From the NCBI GenBank assembly GCA_963823335.1, contig CAWGLD010000001.1, positions 1,152,001 through 1,216,000 on the forward strand: a stretch of DNA of 64,000 bases, written 5' to 3'. The DNA is from an uncultured delta proteobacterium. GTDB lineage: Bacteria > Desulfobacterota > Desulfobacteria > Desulfobacterales > B30-G6. Positions 1 through 38,718 of this stretch are shown piece by piece. Position numbers and translations under genes: made by a program. The notes under the pieces are model-generated. The model saw nothing but the letters and a program-made list of their open reading frames with translations. It was not told the DNA's origin and searched no databases. Position 1 is the stretch's first letter. Every line of letters begins with the position of its first letter.

Positions 1-3000
1 TGATGCTAAAAATTCCAGAGCCCGTCATTAATCCATCCTTGTCATATGAGTAGCCTGTTGTTTCTCCGGCATAGGTAAAGGCTTTTAGATTGAAATCATC
101 GTTATAGGTGTAAACAAGGGCCTGGTTCAGCGTGCCGCTCAAGATTTCCGATGTTAAGAGCCTGCCGTCATATTCAAAGCTGATGCTGTCGGTTCCACTG
201 GTCATGGATTCCAGCTTGTCTCCGCAAAGATAGGTGTAATTGATATTTCCTTCGGGCGCTTGAACCTGCATGAGTCTGGTTTTATCATAGATATTGATAA
301 TCTGGTTTCCTGAAGGAAAATTGATTTGGGTCAACTGTCTGTCTCTGTCAAATTCGAAGCTGTAGCTGCCGCTTATGGGTGTCTGGTAAGTGTTATTCAG
401 ATTGACTTTGTTGTATCCGAATCCATGCTCTATGGTGTTTGGATTTGTAAGCACTGTCATATTGCCGTTGCTGTCGTATGAAAACCAGACCGATGAACTG
501 TCCGGCCTGTCGATACGCATGACACGCCCGATTTCATCGTAAGCATAGACTGTGGTATGGTTTTCCGCATCTGTAATCGATTCAAGAAAGCCCTCAGCAG
601 AATAACCATAAGTGGCTTCCCTGATTCCTGTCATGGTTGAGATCATCCGTCCCCTGTCATCATAGCCATACGTTATTTCGTAGAGACCGGGGATTGATAT
701 GCTGTCTGTCTGCAACGTATCAGGGTTATAAAGCATCGTGGTTGTTCTTCCTTCCGGGGATGTAACTGTTTTTTGAGATTCCAAACTGTCTTCGACGATC
801 GTTGTTTTTCCGTTTATAGTGATCATCTCTGAAATTGAATCAACACCCCCGGTGCTATAATCCGGCACATATATTTTATCTCTGGCAATGGTTCTTTCCA
901 GGCCGGATGGGGTTGTCTCTGTTGTTTTCTTGACGAACGTATACCGGTAATCGGGATCGATATCATTCTGGAAAGAAAGTGCCATGCCACATGACAGCGA
1001 TTTGGCCACACGCAGGCCGTCGTCCGAACGACTGTACACGGTTTCCTCGCCGGAAGGCCCGGTAATGGTGGACGTAAAAGCACCGGTTGATTCAATAACA
1101 TCTCGATATGATGTGTTATTGCCTTCAGCAGAGGTGACCTGGACAAGACTGTCGCCGTTGGCGTCTCGATCCTTGCTGTAAGTCCAGGCACCCTCTTCTT
1201 CGTCGGTTACCAGGATGAGTCGCCCGTTTATGTCGAACTGATGCTCAAACCGGTTTCCCTCGGGCTCGAATTTATTTGTCATCAACCCTTCAAGGTCGTA
1301 TTCAAAATCATAATTGGTTCCGTCCGTATAGGTGATTCGATTCAGGTGATTGTTTTCGTCTATGCTTAAGATTGTTGTAAGGCCATCCTGAGAAGTAATG
1401 GATGTGGGAACACCATTTTCGTCTCTTGAAATAGATATTTCATTGCCAAACCGGTCAACCATGGCAATCAGAAGGCTGCTTTCATCATATTCAAAAGAAC
1501 GGTGAGAAATGCCTGTATGCAAGTCAAAGGTCTTTGTGTGCAAACCTGACGCTGAGATGACATGGCCCAGAAGGTTTTCTTCAGAAAAAACATTTTCACC
1601 GGCCATAATTGTATCTGTGAATGAAGAAGGAAAGGAGACTTTTTTAACCAGATGACTGGTATTGTCGGCAATGAAAATATTTCCATCATCGTCGACCGCG
1701 ATACCCAGTGGATGTCTGAATTTAGCCAGGGTTGCAGGGCCCGTTTTCACATCATAAGCATATACCCCTGAACCGGCAATGGTCGTGATGATTCCACTGG
1801 TATTGACCATCCGGATACGTGAATTGCTATCATCTGCTATATATATATTTCCCACATTGTCCACAGCTACATCTCGGGGATAAAAAAGCTGAGCTTCGAC
1901 AGCCGGACCACCGTCACCACTGAATCCCCGACTGCTTGTTCCGGCAAAGGTGGTGATAATGCCGCCAGTGTCAATTCGCCTGATAACATGGGGTCCATAT
2001 GCACTGACATCGGTAATGTATATATTGCCGGCTTGATCAACGGCAACACCTTCAGGCTGGTAAATCTGTGCATTGACGGCCATTCCACCGTCACCGCTAT
2101 GACCTGCTCCATTGCCACCGACAATTGTTGTAATAATACCATTTGTATCGATTTTTCGGACACAATTATTGTAGCTATCTGCAATGTAAAGGTTCCCGAC
2201 ATCATCAACAGCTACGCCTTTTGGGGAATAAAGCCGTGCCTGTGTTGCCGGTCCGTTATCGCCACCGTAGCCGGATGACCCGGGTATACCTGCAATGGTA
2301 TTGATGATACCATTGGCATCGATTTTTCGAATACAGGAATTCCCAATATCTGAAAAATAGATATTCCCGTTACTATCGACCGCAATTCCCCCACAGCCTT
2401 CAATTCTTGCTTCGACTGCCGGACCTCCATCACCGCTAAAACCCCATCCCTGATACAGTCCAGTAAGGTTATTGAGGATACCGTTTGTATCTATTTTATA
2501 AATCACACCGTAGAAATCTAGTGCTACATAAACATTCCCTTCAGTGTCCACCGCCACCTTATTTGGAAAGCCTAATGGATAAAGGTTACCGGTGCCGGCA
2601 AATCTTTCAATCATACGAACATTGCTGGACACTGTCGTACCATCTCCTTTATGTAACGTGGAAAGATCCTGCGAATTCATATGATGGTGATTTGAAATGG
2701 TCCATCCCTCGGCGAAATCTTTTGTGCCCTTACTTCGGGACGGGTGAATCATGAGGCTGTTGTTTTTGGTTAATATAATTTCCTGGCGAGCGGGGATTTC
2801 TGTGGTTTCGACCCCTGGCTGGCTGAATGCCTGGTCAAAATCACCCGCAGCATAGTATATTGAGTCATAGACAAACCCAACAGTCACATGTGCTGGAATT
2901 GGTGTTTGAAGGAGCCTTCCCAGATAGTCCAAACCATCCCAAAAGAACTCCGCTACTTGATCAGGATCCGGCGGCAGTTCCTGTTTCTGAACCGTACCGG

Positions 3001-5107
3001 CGATGTTAACAGCGACTTCGATTCTTTTCAGGCTATCCGGGACCGTTTCACCGCTTGCAGGAACCGTAATTATGGTGTTATAGCCTTCAGCCCTGTTGCT
3101 GGTGTAATGCAGGGTAATATCTGTTCCAGGGATGGGTATGTCCTCGTGGACAATACGCCCGCGCTCATCTACGAGGGAAGCCGTATAGTTACCATAGCAA
3201 TTTTCATTACCGGCCGGATTCTGATCGGATTCCGGACCGAAAGTTGAATTCGGTCCTATTGCCGTTGGGGGCGTTCCGGATGGAAGGTTCCAATCGCCAG
3301 GTGTAAAATGTGTTGTTTCTACACGCCAATACGTTGTTTCCGGTATATATTGATGCGAATCCTCAAGCCCTGTGACCTCATCTATGAATGACCCATTGTC
3401 ATTGAGATCATCCGGCTGATCATCACCATCCGCATCCAAAGCATCTACAATGGTATCTGCATTGGTATCCAGGAGCCTGACAACAACCCCATTATCTGAT
3501 GGTTCCCATAAGCCCCGAGCCCTGTTATAAAACCCAGCCGGAATAACCTCGCCGACATCAAATCCTAAGAAGTTATCCACCCAAATAATAATGGGATCTG
3601 AAAAACTCACGTTTTTCACACCATCCACGGAAAGTTCTACACAATATGTATAGGCGGAGTTAGGCGGCAGTTCTGCAGGCATTGATTCAGGCGTGGTATA
3701 CTCGGTGGAGCGCGTAGTGATGGTGGTAAGTTCTCCTAATATATTTCCATTCGGGTCAACTTCATAGGCTTTGTTGCTGCCTGTGAATACCGTAGAGCAG
3801 GATCTGCTTCCAAAAGCATCGGTCACCTGGGTGCTTTTATGCGTAATGACCGTGGACGGGTTATCATCAAACGTAAACGTTGTAGAAGCCGGGTCAGGTT
3901 CGATCAGTGCAATGGTTTCACTAACAACAATATCGTTATGACCTGTACGCACCTTTCTTTGACTCGAAAGATAGTCCTCTTTTTGATAGACAATTGTCAG
4001 TGTATCTCCGCCTTCGGCAGGAATGGAAAAACGCCCGGATTGATCTGTTGCAGCCGTGCCATACTCGGGATGATCGAGAATCTTCGTTGTTACGCCTGCT
4101 AAGGGGGTACCGGCAATGTCGGTTACAATCCCGGTTAGAACGATCATTCTTTCTACACTATACGATGGCAAGCTGGCATCTTCCGGGATAAGGTCCTCAT
4201 ACTGTTTTCCGAATGAACCCTCGGGTTGGGGTTCGGGGAGATGCCCACGTACTTTGACGACTGTCGTAAGAAAGAGCGACCCATCAGCATTTGTTGCCGA
4301 CAGAGAATAAGTGGTGGTGTATGCCGGTGTGACAACACGGCTTCCGCTGGGCAATTCTTCACTTACAACTGCACCGTCTTTAATGAAGACAGTATCATAT
4401 CCGTCTGCGGACCAACTCAGGGTTGTAGAATCACCATAGTCCAATTCAGTATCGGATACCACCAGGCCGACCAGGGGTGTTATAACCACTGTAATGGCTT
4501 TTTGTTCAGAAACAATCCCGCCGGGGCCTGTGGCGGTAAGAGTATAGGTGGTCGTTTCGGTGGGTGAAACCGTCATCGAGCCACTATCGACCACCATTCC
4601 GACACCTTGGTCTATTTCGACGGTATCCGCATTCGTTGTTTCCCATGCAAGTACAGACGATTCTCCCTGAAGAATTGAATCGGGATATATGGTAAAATCA
4701 ATCACAGGTGGTGGAATCGGACCGTCTGCATTTTCAATCTTGACATTAATTGAGGCTCCGGGGGTACCCCCAAGAAATGCGGTTAAGTGATTAGAAGCAT
4801 TTAAGGTAATTTCTCTGGACAAATCAATTTCATTTCCAGAAAAGAACTGAATCAGGGGAATGAAGGTGCCATTAAGAAATAGAAAACCAGCGCTGATTAC
4901 CTGACCAGGTGTATTTTTTGTAATGGTTAAAACGCCATCGCCTGGCGTTTGGATTGAAAACGAATACCGGGAGAGATGTAAGTGAAAACTACCTACCTCC
5001 AAATCCTTTGGTCCAAACACGGTCGGTTCATTCGCGTAGGTTATGGATGAAATGATAGAAAACAACATGAAGATGATAATCGGAAAAACAATGGATTTAT
5101 TGTTCAT
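1..5107 (-). CDS. Large secreted teneurin-like NHL/YD (RHS)-repeat protein, 3'-truncated by window edge (>1702 aa)
   Basis: ATG at 5107 with GAGGAGG upstream; N-terminus MNNKSIVFPIIIFMLFSIISSITYA is signal-peptide-like. The segments I translated by hand share one frame, and the ORF track lists no stop-bounded ORF in that frame. NHL repeats (GFSGDGGPA...GVAVDDVGNLYIADSYNNCVRKID) at ~1670-2760; YD repeats (YGYDDRGRM, YAYDEIGRV, YSYDKDGL) at ~1-1600. Confidence 0.9.
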   Translation of the reverse strand, partial: MNNKSIVFPIIIFMLFSIISSITYANEPTVFGPKDLEVGSFHLHLSRYSFSIQTPGDGVLTITKNTPGQVISAGFLFLNGTFIPLIQFFSGNEIDLSREITLNASNHLTAFLGGTPGASINVKIENADGPIPPPVIDFTIYPDSILQGESSVLAWETTNADTVEIDQGVGMVVDSGSMTVSPTETTTYTLTATGPGGIVSEQKAITVVITPLVGLVVSDTELDYGDSTTLSWSADGYDTVFIKDGAVVSEELPSGSRVVTPAYTTTYSLSATNADGSLFLTTVVKVRGHLPEPQPEGSFGKQYEDLIPEDASLPSYSVERMIVLTGIVTDIAGTPLAGVTTKILDHPEYGTAATDQSGRFSIPAEGGDTLTIVYQKEDYLSSQRKVRTGHNDIVVSETIALIEPDPASTTFTFDDNPSTVITHKSTQVTDAFGSRSCSTVFTGSNKAYEVDPNGNILGELTTITTRSTEYTTPESMPAELPPNSAYTYCVELSVDGVKNVSFSDPIIIWVDNFLGFDVGEVIPAGFYNRARGLWEPSDNGVVVRLLDTNADTIVDALDADGDDQPDDLNDNGSFIDEVTGLEDSHQYIPETTYWRVETTHFTPGDWNLPSGTPPTAIGPNSTFGPESDQNPAGNENCYGNYTASLVDERGRIVHEDIPIPGTDITLHYTSNRAEGYNTIITVPASGETVPDSLKRIEVAVNIAGTVQKQELPPDPDQVAEFFWDGLDYLGRLLQTPIPAHVTVGFVYDSIYYAAGDFDQAFSQPGVETTEIPARQEIILTKNNSLMIHPSRSKGTKDFAEGWTISNHHHMNSQDLSTLHKGDGTTVSSNVRMIERFAGTGNLYPLGFPNKVAVDTEGNVYVALDFYGVIYKIDTNGILNNLTGLYQGWGFSGDGGPAVEARIEGCGGIAVDSNGNIYFSDIGNSCIRKIDANGIINTIAGIPGSSGYGGDNGPATQARLYSPKGVAVDDVGNLYIADSYNNCVRKIDTNGIITTIVGGNGAGHSGDGGMAVNAQIYQPEGVAVDQAGNIYITDVSAYGPHVIRRIDTGGIITTFAGTSSRGFSGDGGPAVEAQLFYPRDVAVDNVGNIYIADDSNSRIRMVNTSGIITTIAGSGVYAYDVKTGPATLAKFRHPLGIAVDDDGNIFIADNTSHLVKKVSFPSSFTDTIMAGENVFSEENLLGHVISASGLHTKTFDLHTGISHRSFEYDESSLLIAMVDRFGNEISISRDENGVPTSITSQDGLTTILSIDENNHLNRITYTDGTNYDFEYDLEGLMTNKFEPEGNRFEHQFDINGRLILVTDEEEGAWTYSKDRDANGDSLVQVTSAEGNNTSYRDVIESTGAFTSTITGPSGEETVYSRSDDGLRVAKSLSCGMALSFQNDIDPDYRYTFVKKTTETTPSGLERTIARDKIYVPDYSTGGVDSISEMITINGKTTIVEDSLESQKTVTSPEGRTTTMLYNPDTLQTDSISIPGLYEITYGYDDRGRMISTMTGIREATYGYSAEGFLESITDAENHTTVYAYDEIGRVMRIDRPDSSSVWFSYDSNGNMTVLTNPNTIEHGFGYNKVNLNNTYQTPISGSYSFEFDRDRQLTQINFPSGNQIINIYDKTRLMQVQAPEGNINYTYLCGDKLESMTSGTDSISFEYDGRLLTSEILSGTLNQALVYTYNDDFNLKAFTYAGETTGYSYDKDGLMTGSGIFSI

Positions 5108-5299
5108 GACAGCCCTCCTCAACACTTCATTGAGTGTCTCACCCTAAAGGCGATACGGTTTTATTTTTAGTAAAATCGTTTTATGCTTCTATAGGGTGTA
5201 TGATGCCAAAGGACTATCTAAAATCAATCCTGGTAAAATGCCCTGTTAATGCGGTATAAAATTACGTAGAAGCTGTTGATGTGATTTTGAGGAGCCTGA

Positions 5300-19222: not shown

Positions 19223-20200
19223 ATGTCTTCGAACCGTCTGCTCTATCTTTCCCAGCAGGAGGTGGCTTCCGCCGGTGTTACCATGGCGGAAATTATTGAT
19301 CTGCTGGAAATCGCTTTTCAGGAAAAAGGAAACCATCAAACGGAAATGCCGCCAAAACCAGGGATTCATCCGGGCGGCGGTGACAACTTTATTCATGCCA
19401 TGCCGGCCTATATACCGGCAATGAAGGCTGCCGGCATCAAGTGGGTCAGCGGATTTCCGGACAACCTCAAACAAGGCGTTCCCTATATCAACGGGCTGCT
19501 CATTCTAAATGATGCAGAAACAGGTCTGCCAATATCCGTCATGGATTGTGTCTGGCTCACCGGGATGAGAACCGGCGCCGCAACAGCCTTGTCAGCCCGT
19601 TACCTGGCACGGCCCGATTCATCAACTGTCGGCGTGCTTGGATGCGGGGTCCAGGGCAGGACCAATTTCGAAGCATTGAAGGTGCTGTTTCCCCTTCAAA
19701 GCGTGAAAGCCTTTGATGCCCATAAGGGGGCAGCTCAGGCCTATGCAAAAGAGATTCAAGCCCGTTTTGATGTTCATGTGGAAATTGTTGAGACGCCTCA
19801 AGCCGCGGTGACAGGCAGTGACATCATCGTGACGGCCGGTCCGATTCTGAAAAAACCCCATGCCACCATCCAGCCAGGATGGATGTCGGAAGGGGCCTTT
19901 GCTTCACTGGTGGATTTTGATTCTTACTGGCATGCCCATGCCATGAAGGAAGCAGGCAAATTCTGCACGGATGATACGCCTCAGATGCTGCATTACAAAA
20001 CACTGGGGTATTTTCAGGAGATCCCACCCATTCATGCCGACCTGGGAGAACTGGTGACGGGCGAAAAACCCGGGCGCGAGACACGTAAGGAGAAAACCAT
20101 GACCGCAAACCTTGGTCTTGCCATCGACGATATGGCCGTGGCTCCCTTGGTTTTTCAAAAAGCCAGGGAAAAAGGGATCGGGACTTGGTTAGACTTATGA
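19223..20200 (+). CDS. Ornithine cyclodeaminase/mu-crystallin family protein
   Basis: MPPKP, HAMPAY, GIKWVS, LTGMRTGA, GCGVQG, GLAIDD. Confidence 0.9.
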   Translation: MSSNRLLYLSQQEVASAGVTMAEIIDLLEIAFQEKGNHQTEMPPKPGIHPGGGDNFIHAMPAYIPAMKAAGIKWVSGFPDNLKQGVPYINGLLILNDAETGLPISVMDCVWLTGMRTGAATALSARYLARPDSSTVGVLGCGVQGRTNFEALKVLFPLQSVKAFDAHKGAAQAYAKEIQARFDVHVEIVETPQAAVTGSDIIVTAGPILKKPHATIQPGWMSEGAFASLVDFDSYWHAHAMKEAGKFCTDDTPQMLHYKTLGYFQEIPPIHADLGELVTGEKPGRETRKEKTMTANLGLAIDDMAVAPLVFQKAREKGIGTWLDL

Positions 20201-20229
20201 TACCAATGTAAGAAAGGACGGTAACACGT

Positions 20230-21399
20230 ATGACGGAAAAGATAGATATCATCATCATCGGTGGCGGGATCATGGGGAGCGCCACTGCCTATTCACTGCT
20301 GCAGGCGGACAACGGCCTGAAGATAGTAGTGATCGAAAAGGATCCCTCATACACGCGTGCATCCACCACCTTATCCATGTCCAATGCCCGGATTCAGTTC
20401 AGCCTGAAACAGAATATCCGGATATCCCAATATGCTTTTGAGATACTGGAACGGTTCGAGGAGGATATGGGGGTGGGAGACAGACACCCACGCATTGGAT
20501 TCAAGCGGGAAGGGAACCTGTTTGTGGTGGACGCGCAGGGACTCGAATCTGCAAAAGCAGCGATTCAACTGCAAAAGGGACTGGGCTGTGACATCCTGTG
20601 GCAGAGTCCAGAGGAGATCGCGGCACAGTACCCCTTGTACAATATGAAAGAATATGTCGGCGGGTCTTTTGGCCCCCGGGATGGTTATTTCGATGCCTAT
20701 GCCACTCTCATGGGATACAAGGCAAAAGCCATTGCCATGGGGGCACGCTATATAGAAGACGCGGTTGTAAAAATAAACCTTATGAACAAGCAGGTGGATG
20801 GCGTACACCTGGCATCCGGCAACGCCCTTGGGGCCGGTGTCGTTGTCAACTGTGCCGGCGCATGGGCAGCGCAGGTCGCCCGTACAGCCAATGTCGACCT
20901 GCCCATCGATCCGGTCAAGCGCCAGGTGTTTGTACTGGATACGACGGTGAAGCCTGAACGGCCCCTGCCCTTGACGGTTCTTCCATCGGGTCTTTATTTT
21001 AGAACGGAAACAGGGGGCCACATTCTGTTGGGAAAATCCATGGATGAGGATCCGGTCGGCTTTGAATTTTCCTGGGACGAAAAACGGTTTTATGATGTAT
21101 TGTGGCCCGAGCTTGCCGAGTATGTGCCCGCTTTCGATACCCTGAAACTCATCCGGGGATGGGCTGGTCTCTATGCGGTCAACCGGCTGGACAGCAATGC
21201 CATTCTCGGGGAATGGCCTGAAATTGCGGGTCTGTTTTTGGCCAATGGGTTTTCGGGCCACGGTCTGCAGCAGGCCCCGGCGGTGGGGCGCTATCTGTCA
21301 GAAGTTATTTTGGGAAAAGAGCCTGTTTTGGACCTGTCCATATTTTCTCCCCAGCGCATTCTTGAAAACAAACCCTTAACGGAGATGGGGTTGGTATAG
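20230..21399 (+). CDS. FAD-dependent oxidoreductase (DAO/sarcosine oxidase beta/FOXRED1-like)
   Basis: IIGGGIMGSATA, RIQFS, WAGLY, GFSGHGLQQAPAVG. Confidence 0.88.
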   Translation: MTEKIDIIIIGGGIMGSATAYSLLQADNGLKIVVIEKDPSYTRASTTLSMSNARIQFSLKQNIRISQYAFEILERFEEDMGVGDRHPRIGFKREGNLFVVDAQGLESAKAAIQLQKGLGCDILWQSPEEIAAQYPLYNMKEYVGGSFGPRDGYFDAYATLMGYKAKAIAMGARYIEDAVVKINLMNKQVDGVHLASGNALGAGVVVNCAGAWAAQVARTANVDLPIDPVKRQVFVLDTTVKPERPLPLTVLPSGLYFRTETGGHILLGKSMDEDPVGFEFSWDEKRFYDVLWPELAEYVPAFDTLKLIRGWAGLYAVNRLDSNAILGEWPEIAGLFLANGFSGHGLQQAPAVGRYLSEVILGKEPVLDLSIFSPQRILENKPLTEMGLV

Positions 21400-21402
21400 C
21401 AA

Positions 21403-22650
21403 ATGGAAACATCCAAGCACGTCATCATCATCGGTGGTGGTGTCATAGGCGGGTTTGCGGCGTATTACCTGCTGGAGAACGGGTGGTCGGTTACCATCGT
21501 CGACAAAGACCGCTTCGGCCAGGGAGCTTCCAGCGGCAACTGCGGCCTGATCGTCCCCAATCACATTCTGCCCCTCAACTCCCTGGGCACCCTTGTCAAG
21601 GCGCTCACGTGGATGCTGTCTGAAGATTCGCCGCTGTATATCAAGCCGCGATTGGACGCTAATCTGATTAAATGGTTTTGCCAGTTTGCTCGTCATGCAC
21701 ATCCAAAAGCGGTGTTGAGATCTGCGAGAGGCCGTCATGCATTGCTGAAGAGCAGTTTCGAGCTGTATCCGGTGTTTATGGAGGCAGAAAATGTGGCCTG
21801 CGACTGGGATGTGGGCGGTTCCCTTCACATTTATAGATCTGCCAGGGGCTGGAACGATTATCGCAGAACCGATACTTTTTTAAGAGGGTTCGGAATACAG
21901 GCCCAGGCCCTGGACAGGAATACCATCCGTGGCTTTATGCCGGCCCTGGATGAGGGCGTCAGCGGCGGCTGGCTCTACCGGCAGACCGCCCTTCTCCGAC
22001 CCGAACGGCTCATGTCTGAGTTGCGCCGCATTCTTCTAGACCGTGGTGCACGGATTTTAGAGAATTGTCCAGTTCAAACCTTTCGGCAGGAACAAGGTCG
22101 CGCTGTTTCCATTGTGACAAAGGATGGGGAACTTGCAGCCGATGCATTTGTGCTGGCCACAGGGGCCTGGGCGCCTTTTTTTGAGAACGTGCTGGGGTGC
22201 AACCTCCCGATTCAAGCGGGAAAAGGGTATTCTATGACCATGGATCGGCCAGAGAGATTTCCCGGGATCCCATGCTTTTTTGAAGAACAGCGCATGGTAT
22301 CGACACCCTGGCCCGATGCGTGCCGGCTGGGAGGAACCATGGAATTCTCGGGTTATGATACCCAGCTGAACCAACGGCGACTGCGGGCGTTGAAAAGCGG
22401 TTTCGAGGGCTACTCCGAGCAATGGCAATTCAACAGCAAAAAAGAGCAATGGTGTGGTTTCCGGCCCATGACCATGGACGGGTTGCCTTTCATCGATCGT
22501 TCGCCCCGGTTGAAAAATGTCATGATTGCAGCCGGGCATAACATGATCGGCCTGAGTGCGGCGCCGGGAACGGGAAAACTCGTGGCTGAGATCCTGGCAG
22601 GAGCCTCGCCCCATATCGATCCACATCCCTACCGCATTACAAGGCCATAA
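21403..22650 (+). CDS. D-amino acid dehydrogenase (DadA-like)
   Basis: IIGGGVIG, ASSGNCGL, GKGYS, WCGFRPMT.DGLPFI, GHNMIGL. Confidence 0.88.
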   Translation: METSKHVIIIGGGVIGGFAAYYLLENGWSVTIVDKDRFGQGASSGNCGLIVPNHILPLNSLGTLVKALTWMLSEDSPLYIKPRLDANLIKWFCQFARHAHPKAVLRSARGRHALLKSSFELYPVFMEAENVACDWDVGGSLHIYRSARGWNDYRRTDTFLRGFGIQAQALDRNTIRGFMPALDEGVSGGWLYRQTALLRPERLMSELRRILLDRGARILENCPVQTFRQEQGRAVSIVTKDGELAADAFVLATGAWAPFFENVLGCNLPIQAGKGYSMTMDRPERFPGIPCFFEEQRMVSTPWPDACRLGGTMEFSGYDTQLNQRRLRALKSGFEGYSEQWQFNSKKEQWCGFRPMTMDGLPFIDRSPRLKNVMIAAGHNMIGLSAAPGTGKLVAEILAGASPHIDPHPYRITRP

Positions 22651-35299: not shown

Positions 35300-35415
35300 T
35301 TCTTTCAAATGTTGAACCGAAAAAGAGAGGCACCCCAGCGACGTGTTGGTACGTGGCGGAATTTCCGGCTTGTCTGGACCGCAGGATTCTTTATTTCCCA
35401 AATAAGGAGAGACAT

Positions 35416-36798
35416 ATGAATAAAATTATATCCCGGATGGGTGATGGTTGGTTGGTGGCGTTCAGTGAGCAGGAATTGAAACGGGAGTTGGAGGAAGGCA
35501 CGCAGGATGCCGCCGCTCAGGGTGATATTGACCCGCTGCTCGAAGATGAATTGGAATATCTCTTTGAAATTTGTCGGTCGGGCAACAAAATGACAGGGGT
35601 TGAAGCCGGCCGAGAGGTTGTCCTCTCCTACGATGGTCCGACGTTTGAAATTAGACGACTGGGGATCCTGGCGAACCGTCAGACGGCATTGCAAATATAT
35701 GAAAGATGTTTTGGTGCCGACACCCTAGAATTTTCCCATATTGATTACAGCTATAAACAGGTGAAACCCATTGTGCATGAGGAGCTGCCCCTCTTTGAAC
35801 AGCTTCAATCCTTGACCGTAGCGCCCATGCTCTATGGCGCCATGCCCAATTTAGGGCTGTACACAAAACCAGACGGCCCGGTTGCCAACCCGAGTGAGTT
35901 GATGCCCCAGGGAAAAATAAAGGATGCCCAGGAGGCTTATGAAGAGGCCGTTGAAATGTCTGTGAACGACATGGTTTTTGTCGCTTCAAAGTTTTATGAG
36001 GCTGGTTGTGACGGTATCAATATCGACACCGTAGGGGCCTCTGGCGACCCTGATTTTAAAGCGGCTCTGTTAGCGACAGAAGCGCTCAGGAATAAATATC
36101 CCGATATCAATATTGAAATTGGAATGGCAGGTGAATTTGTTCTGGGTATGCATGGAGAGATGACACACAACGGGAGACGATTGGCCGGCATGTATCCCCA
36201 TGAACAGGTTAAGCTGGTGGAGGAGGCCGGTGCCCACATATTTGGGGCCGTGGTAAACACACAGACACGCCAGTCCTTTCCCTGGAATCTGGCCAGATCA
36301 GTGACCTTTAGTAAAGCATGCACAGCGGCAGCCAATATCCCAGTACACGGTAATATGGGGATGGGCGTCGGTTCACTGCCCGTTTGCGAGATGCAACCGG
36401 CTGAAACGGTATCCATGGCCTCCAAGGCAATGGTCGAAATTGCCCGTCTTGATGGCTTGTAGGTTGGCACCGGTGATCCTGCCGGTGTGGCCATTACACA
36501 TGCCATGACCTCGGGAATGGGTGGAATACGGACCACAGGAGATCTTGTGGCTCGGATGCAAATTTCGCGGGGCATGAAAATTGGTAAGGCCAAACAATAT
36601 GTAGCAGAAAAATTGGGTGTATCCATCCAGGATATACACGATGCAGTGGCTATGCGAGAGACACGGGAAGACCTCCGTATCGGTGTACTGCAATCGTTGC
36701 CTGGTCACCCAAAAGGCATTGAAGCCAAGTACAATATTGCCAGAGTACTCGGAATTGAATTGAATTCCTTACGTTCTTCAAAAGTCCGTATCGGATGA
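35416..36798 (+). CDS. mtbB: Pyrrolysine-containing dimethylamine:corrinoid methyltransferase (460 aa, TAG at 36460-36462 = codon 349)
   Basis: AAGGAG RBS; SRMGDG, HIDYSYKQVKP, YGAMPNLGLY, WNLARSVTF, GMGVG. Context ..[41 protein letters not shown] continues MtbB homology in the same frame. Confidence 0.93.
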
Positions 36799-36932
36799 GC
36801 CGGCAAAGATCAGTCTGAATCACAACAGAGACTGCACTCCTGTGGCTTGTCGTGTCTGCAAGGCTCTGCTTTGTGCTTTTTGTCAACAGCGGCCCCAAAT
36901 TCTCCAGGCTAAGAATAAACCTTAGGAAAAAA

Positions 36933-36962
36933 TTGACTTCATGGAGAATGAAACGCTATAAT
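36933..36962 (+). promoter_or_regulatory. Candidate sigma70 promoter for mttB
   Basis: TTGACT-N18-TATAAT. Confidence 0.55.
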
Positions 36963-37150: not shown

Positions 37151-37224
37151 ATTTGGATTCGAGTGTTTCAAGTTTACACTGCTGTAGACAGGATTACTAA
37201 AGATGTCCAAAAAAGGAGAATAAT

Positions 37225-38718
37225 ATGCCAATCGAAACAATAGCCCAGGCAGTAAAAAAATGCGGTGTTGCCATCGAGCCGGCCGTGTCTTTTCGACTGC
37301 AGTGCCTGAGCGATGAGGACTGCCGGAGAATCCATAATGCCACATTGGAAGTCCTGGATCAAACCGGCATTTTTGTTCCCAGCAACAGGGCAACGGAAAT
37401 TTTTGCAGATCATGGCGCCAGGGTGAACAAACACGATCGGCGGGTGTTTTTATCGGCGCACATCGTCGAAAAAGCACTGTCCACCATTCCCGATCAAATT
37501 CGAATCCCCGGACGGGAGCGATCACGGGACTACATCATGGGGGGAGAGTCCCTGGGCTTTATCAATTTCGGGACCACGGTGTTTATAAACGATTTAGCCA
37601 CGGGTGAACGACGTAAATCGACCAAGGAAGATGTGGCCCAGGCGACCCGCGTTTTGGACGCGTTAAACAGCATTGATATATTGATCACCGTATTGAGCTG
37701 TACAGAAAAATCTTCTATGACCGAAACCATGCACGCCACGGCAGCCATGCTCGCAAACACGACCAAACCGGTGGAAGCGGTACCCCCCACGGCCAATTTA
37801 ATTCCCAAAATGGCCCTGATGGGAGAGGCGGCTGTCGGCAGAGATGTCTTTTGCAAAAATCCGTTCTTCTTTACCGGGGTTTGCGTTGTGAGCCCTTTAC
37901 AACTGGTGGACGAGTGCAGTGAAGTGCTGCTGGCATCTGTGGAACATAATTTTGTCACCAGTGTCCTCTCCATGTGCCTGGCCGGAGGGACATCGCCCAT
38001 CCATCTTGCAGGAACAGTGGTCCAGCACAATGCCGAAGTGCTAAGCGGGCTGATTTTGGGACAACTTCTGAAGCCCGGTGCGCCCATGATATACAGCAGC
38101 TCCACCACATCGATGGATATGCTTTTTGGCACCGCTGCCGTCGGGTCCGTGGAAGGCGCTATCCTGAACGCGACCCTGGCCCGCATGGGTCGCTATTACC
38201 ACATACCCGTAAGGGTATCGGGCGGGTAGGTGGACAGTAAACTATGTGACGCCCAAACCGGTTACGAGTCCTTGCTTACAGCGCTTCTTCCCTCATTGGC
38301 AGGTGCCAATCTGGTTTATGGAGCAGGCATGCTGGACAGCGGAATGGTTCTGGATTACGGCAAAATGATTCTTGATGATGAGATCAATCATACTATCAAG
38401 CGCATCGTTAAAGGGGTGCAGGTTACGGAAACATCGCTTTCGGCGGACCTTATCAAGGAGGTAGGGCACACCGGGAATTATTTGACGCATCCGAGCACCT
38501 TGGAGCACTTTTCCGAGTTGGTACAACCCAAACTTATGAACCGGGAAAACTATGAAAACTGGTCGGCCAAAGGTCGAACCGACGTGCACGAAAGGGCATT
38601 GGAAAGAGCCAGGGAACTGGTGGCGAATCATCAGCCTCAGCCTATCAGCGAAAAGGCGCAAAAAGAAATCGATGAAATCATCCGCGAGACTGAAAAAGAA
38701 CTCGATGTGGACAGTTGA
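37225..38718 (+). CDS. mttB: Pyrrolysine-containing trimethylamine:corrinoid methyltransferase (497 aa, TAG at 38227-38229 = codon 335)
   Basis: AAGGAG RBS; IHNATLEVL, VSPLQL, LAGGTSPIHLAGTVVQHNAEVLSG, PGAPMIY. Context VSGG-TAG-VDSKLCDAQTGYE..LAGANLVYGAGML continues in frame. Confidence 0.93.

Follow-up and report, generated by a model that had tools for sequence, protein, structure and literature searches.

We analyzed a 64,000-nucleotide stretch of DNA from an uncultured, sulfate-reducing sediment bacterium of the Desulfobacterales (referred to here as the window; positions 1152001-1216000 of contig C1 in an 11-contig genome of 4.37 Mb) and focused on mttB, a gene whose reading frame contains a single amber codon. 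Positions 37225-38718 of the plus strand very likely encode a full-length pyrrolysine (Pyl)-containing enzyme of the MttB family, most likely a trimethylamine:corrinoid methyltransferase, which would be decoded by the pyrrolysine system of its own genome. Upon translation, this region forms a single frame of 497 codons with an ATG start and a TGA stop, and the only internal stop is a TAG at codon 335, in the context VSGG*VDSK (the asterisk standing for the TAG). In the open reading frame (ORF) list obtained with translation table 11, the ORFs 37225-38229 and 38230-38718 abut in frame. Translation and ORF list thus agree with a preliminary description of this DNA, which had joined the two ORFs across one TAG into 497 amino acids.

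The protein scored 317.6 bits against the Pfam family MTTB (PF06253) and 553.3 bits against the NCBIfam equivalog TIGR02369 (trimeth_pyl), above its cut-off of 525. Its best matches in the PDB, over residues 24-491, were two structures of Methanosarcina barkeri MttB, 7XCM (E 7e-82) and 7XCL (E 4e-81), and the glycine betaine enzymes 9YCE and 2QNE ranked below these Pyl-MttB structures (E 2e-62). When aligned pairwise with 7xcl_A, codon 335 stands opposite X334, the pyrrolysine residue, in agreement with the earlier proposal that the TAG sits at Pyl334 of Methanosarcina MttB. The active-site elements named for the M. barkeri enzyme in PMC9842639 include Gly110-Thr111, Met249, Pyl334 and Tyr364. 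In the same alignment, Gly110-Thr111, Met249 and Tyr364 correspond to G116-T117, M250 and Y365 of the window MttB. Within the clade of the gene, M250 never varies, position 117 alternates between Thr and Ser, and all 21 of 21 sequences carry Y365.

The genome encodes the machinery that such a gene would need. A tRNA-Pyl with the anticodon CUA is located on contig C2 and is followed by PylSc (326.5 bits), PylC (389.6 bits), PylD (251.3 bits) and PylSn (132.2 bits), all above the NCBIfam cut-offs. The cluster of tRNA-Pyl, pylSc, pylC, pylD and pylSn (C2, approximately 76650-80185) does not include pylB; PylB is encoded away from it, at C1:1461420-1462460 (455.1 bits; cut-off, 348.2). Genes for a corrinoid protein, a canonical Pyl-mttB (764.7 bits) and a Pyl-mtbB adjoin the cluster, and the genome further carries dsrA, four corrinoid-protein genes and four genes for RamA-like activases.

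The following mechanism can be proposed from these genes. UAG335 would be decoded by the tRNA-Pyl(CUA) of the genome, charged by the split PylS (PylSc plus PylSn), and pyrrolysine would be supplied by PylB, PylC and PylD. If the enzyme works as M. barkeri MttB does, trimethylamine would be added to the pyrroline imine of Pyl335, with the backbone of Gly116-Thr117 and Tyr365 assisting and Met250 gating the pocket. The Co(I) of a corrinoid protein whose gene lies elsewhere in the genome would then accept a methyl group, which would go on to tetrahydrofolate and be oxidized, coupled to sulfate reduction. The dimethylamine left behind could be demethylated by the product of the adjoining Pyl-mtbB.

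Conservation of the amber codon and of the frame behind it

We searched 40 related genomes and found orthologues at 80-90% identity in six of the nine congeneric genomes, each with one TAG, which is located at codon 335 in all six contigs. The next matches fall to 44% identity and are other Pyl-mttB genes. A scan of metagenomes returned 45 loci, of which we counted the 33 that span the site at 66-100% identity and left out 12 that were distant or fragmentary. All 33 loci have exactly one in-frame stop, a TAG at the same position, within the motif IPVR[VI]SGG-TAG-VD[SA]K. The presence of the same TAG codon in six of six genome contigs and 33 of 33 metagenome contigs indicates that it is due neither to chance nor to an assembly error. 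The preliminary description had judged a chance nonsense mutation very unlikely and would have taken sense codons in orthologues as a sign to the contrary; the codon is TAG in 39 of 39. Its argument also drew on a second gene with a TAG, and this is borne out by mtbB (35353/35416-36798, plus strand), which has its own single TAG at 36460-36462.

Furthermore, none of the 39 orthologues contains any other stop or a frameshift, and the frame of about 160 codons 3′ of the TAG stays open in every one of them. We compared the ratio of nonsynonymous to synonymous substitution rates (dN/dS) in the two parts of the gene by the Nei-Gojobori method, using 21 pairs from seven sequences (dS from 0.27 to >2, with one segment saturated in four pairs). 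The ratio was 0.043 to 0.111 before the TAG and 0.064 to 0.126 after it, indicating that the 160 codons 3′ of the TAG are under the same purifying selection as the codons 5′ of it. The sequence 3′ of UAG335 is thus in all probability translated.

In a protein database, we found 63 clusters with 64-91% identity to the gene product, all 286 to 345 amino acids in length and mostly of exactly 334. Gene callers therefore stop at the TAG throughout the clade, and because its members are cut to "proteins" of 334 residues, the databases under-report it. Sequencing data listed as containing the sequence comprise 20 entries from 10 studies, all of them DNA and none RNA.

Position within the MttB family and alternative readings

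The genome contains 26 matches to PF06253. After dropping seven fragments, we retained 19 full-length paralogues, 6 with one TAG and 13 without. All six TAGs share one alignment column, and the residues found there in the 13 sense-codon paralogues are V, S, A, V, C, G, T, A, M, A, C, N and L. A tyrosine occupies the column of Tyr364 in 6/6 TAG-bearing paralogues versus 1/13 sense-codon paralogues. Five mtbB matches were also found in the genome, each with one TAG.

Several loci of this genome deserve mention beside the paralogues. On contig C5, a group II intron domain (RF02005, 87.5 bits; near 307866-308060, L020 942-1136) lies beside a non-Pyl MttB paralogue, and a short mttB fragment with a TAG is found about 5 kb from the intron domain (C5:313321-313494). 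An MtmB-family homologue with no internal stop (C7:374563-375909, 291.7 bits), possibly a non-Pyl relative of MtmB, adjoins a corrinoid-protein gene (C7:376242-376826).

We then placed the gene in an unrooted tree of 38 rows (IQ-TREE quick, LG+C20), which comprised the 19 paralogues, 9 clade members, 5 neighbouring non-Pyl MttB, 4 Pyl-mttB of relatives and the database protein P0065 (486 amino acids), with neither archaeal nor Firmicutes references. One branch, with a support of 82 in the Shimodaira-Hasegawa-like approximate likelihood-ratio test (SH-aLRT), sets off all 19 TAG-bearing rows together with P0065. The window gene lies on this side of the tree and does not group with non-Pyl MttB; the preliminary description had named such a grouping as contrary evidence. 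Its own clade of 10 rows has a support of 100, and P0065 is the sister of this clade (support, 99). In P0065, Tyr occupies the Pyl column and His the column of Tyr364; the change from TAG to TAY takes a single base, and P0065 looks like a secondary loss of pyrrolysine. Judged by sequence, the window gene is a member of a distinct, divergent Pyl-MttB subclade that has kept the TAG in uncultured Desulfobacterales and their relatives. A tblastn search of a plasmid collection returned solely non-Pyl alphaproteobacterial homologues at about 30% identity, which were unsuitable as Pyl references.

Several points weigh against a trimethylamine-specific pyrrolysine enzyme, and they have to be considered together with the other possible readings. 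Read-through of UAG335 is predicted from the genes, and TAG terminates 559 of 2623 ORFs (about 21%) in a roughly assembled set limited to ORFs that do not overlap and have 200 codons or more, so that UAG is still an ordinary stop in this genome, without global reassignment. One could thus regard the gene as a pseudogene or as a sequencing or assembly error, i.e., as a formerly sense-coded MttB homologue hit by a chance nonsense mutation, the more so as TAG ends about one-fifth of the long ORFs and gene callers split the gene there. This has next to no probability and is refuted by the conservation of the TAG, which is the same codon in 39/39 independent contigs while synonymous sites are saturated; the low dN/dS after the TAG (approximately 0.06 to 0.13) and the lack of other stops or frameshifts speak against it as well. 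A split gene is also conceivable, in which ribosomes would terminate at the UAG and re-initiate at GTG 38230, yielding two chains (334 and 162 residues) that would associate and contain no pyrrolysine. The codon directly 3′ of the TAG is indeed GTG in 31 of 33 distinct contexts, with an unusually constrained third base, whereas the adjacent Val and Gly codons vary freely, and G-rich Gly-Gly codons stand just 5′ of it. However, the remaining two contexts have GTT, which is no start codon and argues against obligatory re-initiation at 38230, and in the five other Pyl-mttB paralogues the TAG is followed by GGC or ACG. Moreover, the split form would lack the catalytic residue itself, and the genome keeps a complete Pyl system. 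We therefore consider a split gene highly improbable; the constrained GTG (38230-38232) could be a context for UAG decoding.

The substrate calls for more caution. The window MttB shares only 36-41% identity with the five other Pyl-mttB paralogues of the genome, its subclade is separate (support, 100), and its TIGR02369 score is the lowest of the six (551 versus 578-762 bits). Since the cut-off of 525 is also passed by the sense-codon, non-Pyl paralogue C7:57982 (592 bits) and by the Tyr-substituted P0065 (561 bits), a TIGR02369 score does not establish the substrate and does not on its own separate Pyl from non-Pyl enzymes. The residues around Pyl are specific to the clade (SGG-O-VDSK, versus AGG-O-GDSK in the canonical bacterial paralogues), so the substrate could differ from trimethylamine. 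In addition, we found no corrinoid-protein gene within the 64-kb window or adjoining the orthologues, except at locus L088; four candidates elsewhere in the genome are possible partners. The subclade might then consist of Pyl enzymes that act on another tertiary amine, for instance the product of quaternary-amine demethylation, in a cassette with the adjoining Pyl-MtbB and, in many relatives, an upstream non-Pyl MttB. Such an order, non-Pyl MTTB, subclade Pyl-mttB and a lower-scoring type of Pyl-mtbB (Dimeth_Pyl), occurs in L071, L074, L077, L080 and L081, where the downstream MtbB type reaches 431-436 bits versus 477-489. On the other hand, all catalytic residues named for the M. barkeri enzyme are kept, and mttB beside mtbB is the ordinary layout for stepwise demethylation of trimethylamine. 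We thus see a different tertiary amine as a rather improbable substrate and favor a Pyl-containing trimethylamine methyltransferase.

A conserved hairpin downstream of the UAG

A 16-nt sequence with the potential to form a hairpin of 6 bp, ATTGGC-AGGT-GCCAAT, starts 68 nt after the T of the TAG and covers codons 357.3-362. Among 173 conserved columns with at least four-fold degeneracy in 21 clade genes, the columns with zero entropy are solely L358 (TTG), A359 (GCA) and A361 (GCC), and N362 is always AAT in the 21 distinct full-length clade genes. The background frequencies of these codons are 0.16-0.23 for TTG, 0.21-0.24 for GCA and 0.42-0.49 for GCC. The hairpin is invariant at synonymous sites in 20/20 clade genes. 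Most canonical Pyl-mttB genes of Desulfobacterota share these nucleotides. Of 33 genes encoding the LAGA[ND] peptide, 27 have TTGGCAGGNGCC here and another has the compensated variant TTAGCAGGTGCTAA; none of six non-Pyl paralogues sharing the peptide has the hairpin. Further genes gave the same picture, with the hairpin present in six Pyl genes and absent from two non-Pyl genes, and a search of 200 more Desulfobacterota genomes (E <= 1e-170) yielded one canonical Pyl-mttB (G216), which has it. Among the Desulfobacterota genes compared, the hairpin is thus confined to UAG-containing mttB genes.

This constraint extends beyond the subclade. In 58 Pyl-mttB genes, A361 and A359 have the lowest codon entropies of 63 columns (0.61 and 0.76; mean, 1.79; standard deviation, 0.33). 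In 60 distinct sequences, after exclusion of three rows with a one-codon offset, the two arms pair in 92.8% of cells, versus 20-50% in shifted registers of the partner arm. At the closing position, 38 sequences have A-U, 11 have G-C, 2 have G-U and 9 have no pair. Changes on both sides were seen in 13 cells versus 3.0 ± 1.3 in shuffles (0/500), but relatedness inflates the pairing and covariation figures, and the G-C variants may go back to a single event.

Rfam holds curated 100-nt regions 3′ of the Pyl UAG in mttB (PYLIS_3) and mtbB (PYLIS_2), and both genes of the window match them from their own UAG. The hairpin lies inside the PYLIS_3 match, yet it is not part of the Rfam consensus structure, and the consensus sequence at this place (...cUaGCaGGugCaAAc...) could not form it. 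PYLIS_3 is also weakly passed by two non-Pyl paralogues (45.3 and 42.2 bits), indicating that the model largely tracks coding sequence. A larger PYLIS-like fold was rejected, as the 144-nt region that surrounds and follows the UAG does not exceed shuffled sequences in folding stability (z = +0.56) and RNAalifold gives a weak covariation term (-1.89). The 2007 (PMC1976440) and 2013 analyses reported no structure common to the regions 3′ of bacterial UAGs or of mttB UAGs.

It is possible, although we put it forward only tentatively, that the hairpin (A/G)UUGGC-AGGN-GCCAA(U/C) functions in cis in the Pyl-mttB mRNAs of Desulfobacterota, perhaps modulating UAG read-through or mRNA fate in an organism where about one-fifth of the genes also end in UAG. 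Being open to mutation, it gives a concrete handle on how bacteria in which UAG still terminates translation recognize their Pyl codons, a question that the 2007 and 2013 analyses leave open.

Gene neighbourhood and relation to known systems

The features of the region are compiled in Table 1. Whole-window translation turns 35353-36798 into one frame when the TAG is read as a residue. An in-frame GTG is present at 35353, but ATG 35416 is the likely start, as MtbB orthologues begin at the equivalent Met. The product scores 619.6 bits against Pfam Dimeth_Pyl and 489.1 bits against TIGR02368 (cut-off, 369.1). By these matches, 35416-36798 is a pyrrolysine-type mtbB, predicted to encode a dimethylamine methyltransferase. 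A PDB search with MtbB gave no relevant structure and one spurious match to a designed repeat protein.

Table 1. Features at and around mttB in the window
Feature	Position	Strand	Evidence
mtbB	35416..36798	+	Translation; Dimeth_Pyl; TIGR02368
PYLIS_2 (RF02509) match from mtbB UAG	36460..36559	+	72.9 bits (gathering threshold, 36)
Terminator-like hairpin 36857-36875 with T-run; sigma-70-like promoter 36933-36962 (11/12)	36857..36962	+	Pattern matches; counts in the promoter/terminator scan not above shuffles
Shine-Dalgarno-like AAAGGAGA, 5 nt 5′ of mttB ATG	37212..37219	+	Sequence inspection
mttB coding sequence	37225..38718	+	Translation; matches to Pfam MTTB, TIGR02369 and PDB 7XCL/7XCM
UAG codon 335, predicted pyrrolysine site	38227..38229	+	Opposite X334 of 7xcl_A; 39/39 orthologues
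PYLIS_3 (RF02510) match from mttB UAG	38227..38326	+	63.4 bits (gathering threshold, 38); model positions 1-100
Conserved hairpin ATTGGC-AGGT-GCCAAT	38295..38310	+	Synonymous constraint; covariation; also matched in terminator-like scan

The spacer between mtbB and mttB measures 426 nt in the window and 14 nt in L055, and it showed no conservation in the orthologues. We also considered a conserved 5′ leader or riboswitch before mttB and rejected it, as the 300 nt upstream could not be aligned among 12 orthologues and gave no Rfam match at E <= 1. Two orthologues at about 80% identity have mtbB upstream, as in the window. In the four closest orthologues (L051-L054, 88-90% identity), a nifS-like gene stands directly 5′ of mttB and mtbB is absent, which points to a recent loss or rearrangement.

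We surveyed the context of the gene in 23 metagenome loci, in which 44 of the 90 flanking ORFs were scanned with Pfam. A Dimeth_Pyl gene adjoins the subclade mttB in 14 of the 23 loci, upstream in 5 and downstream in 9, and a non-Pyl MTTB gene adjoins it in 8. The subclade mttB is thus usually linked to mtbB, and this linkage fits a stepwise demethylation of trimethylamine, then dimethylamine. In L088, an ornithine-aminotransferase-like gene and the corrinoid-protein gene are located downstream, and in L070, L073 and L087 the mttB and mtbB genes are accompanied by a GntR/FCD regulator.

Two other regions of the window were noted. On the minus strand, 2-5125 is an open frame of >1708 amino acids that runs off the window and contains teneurin-like NHL, TTR, YD-shell and RHS repeats. 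On the plus strand, 19223-22650 comprises an ornithine cyclodeaminase-family gene followed by two tandem FAD oxidoreductases of the DAO family; since the first of these ends in a TAG 3 nt 5′ of the next ATG, two separate genes are more probable than a case of read-through.

Pyl-mttB and Pyl-mtbB genes of marine Deltaproteobacteria are already published, and only the distinct, divergent subclade is new. In 2007, 10 Pyl-containing MtbB and MttB sequences and a split pylS were described in the dataset of the Olavius algarvensis delta-1 symbiont (PMC1976440). In 2021, marine-sediment Desulfobacterales with Pyl-mttB were reported, and most such genomes had up to five copies of the trimethylamine methyltransferase plus a Pyl dimethylamine methyltransferase (PMC8318568). 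These organisms resemble the present one in phylum and lifestyle, and their genomes, as here, combine several Pyl-mttB, Pyl-mtbB, split pylSc/pylSn and many non-Pyl MttB paralogues. The subclade is set apart by comparison with the canonical copy beside the pyl cluster of this genome (36-41% identity).

The window gene adds another well-supported natural expansion of the genetic code in uncultured marine sulfate reducers. As sulfate reducers are thought to compete with methanogens for trimethylamine, it also bears on methane and nitrogen cycling in sediments.

Among characterized systems, M. barkeri MttB (7XCL/7XCM/7XCN; PMC9842639) is the closest: the two proteins align over the full length, the UAG stands opposite Pyl334, and the active-site Gly-Thr, Met and Tyr are kept. 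However, its host is a methanogen, whereas the window gene belongs to a bacterial sulfate reducer, and the Pyl flanks differ (AGS-O-SDAK in M. barkeri, SGG-O-VDSK here). Unlike in M. barkeri, no mttC or mttP operon partners adjoin the window mttB. The methyl acceptor would presumably be tetrahydrofolate instead of coenzyme M, going by the pathway outlined in PMC8318568. The non-Pyl quaternary-amine methyltransferases of the Desulfitobacterium hafniense MtgB type (2QNE, 9YCE) share the fold family of the window MttB (E 2e-62), but in MtgB-like proteins the Pyl column is filled by a sense codon and an equivalent of Tyr365 is usually absent, and the window gene stands apart from them on the tree.

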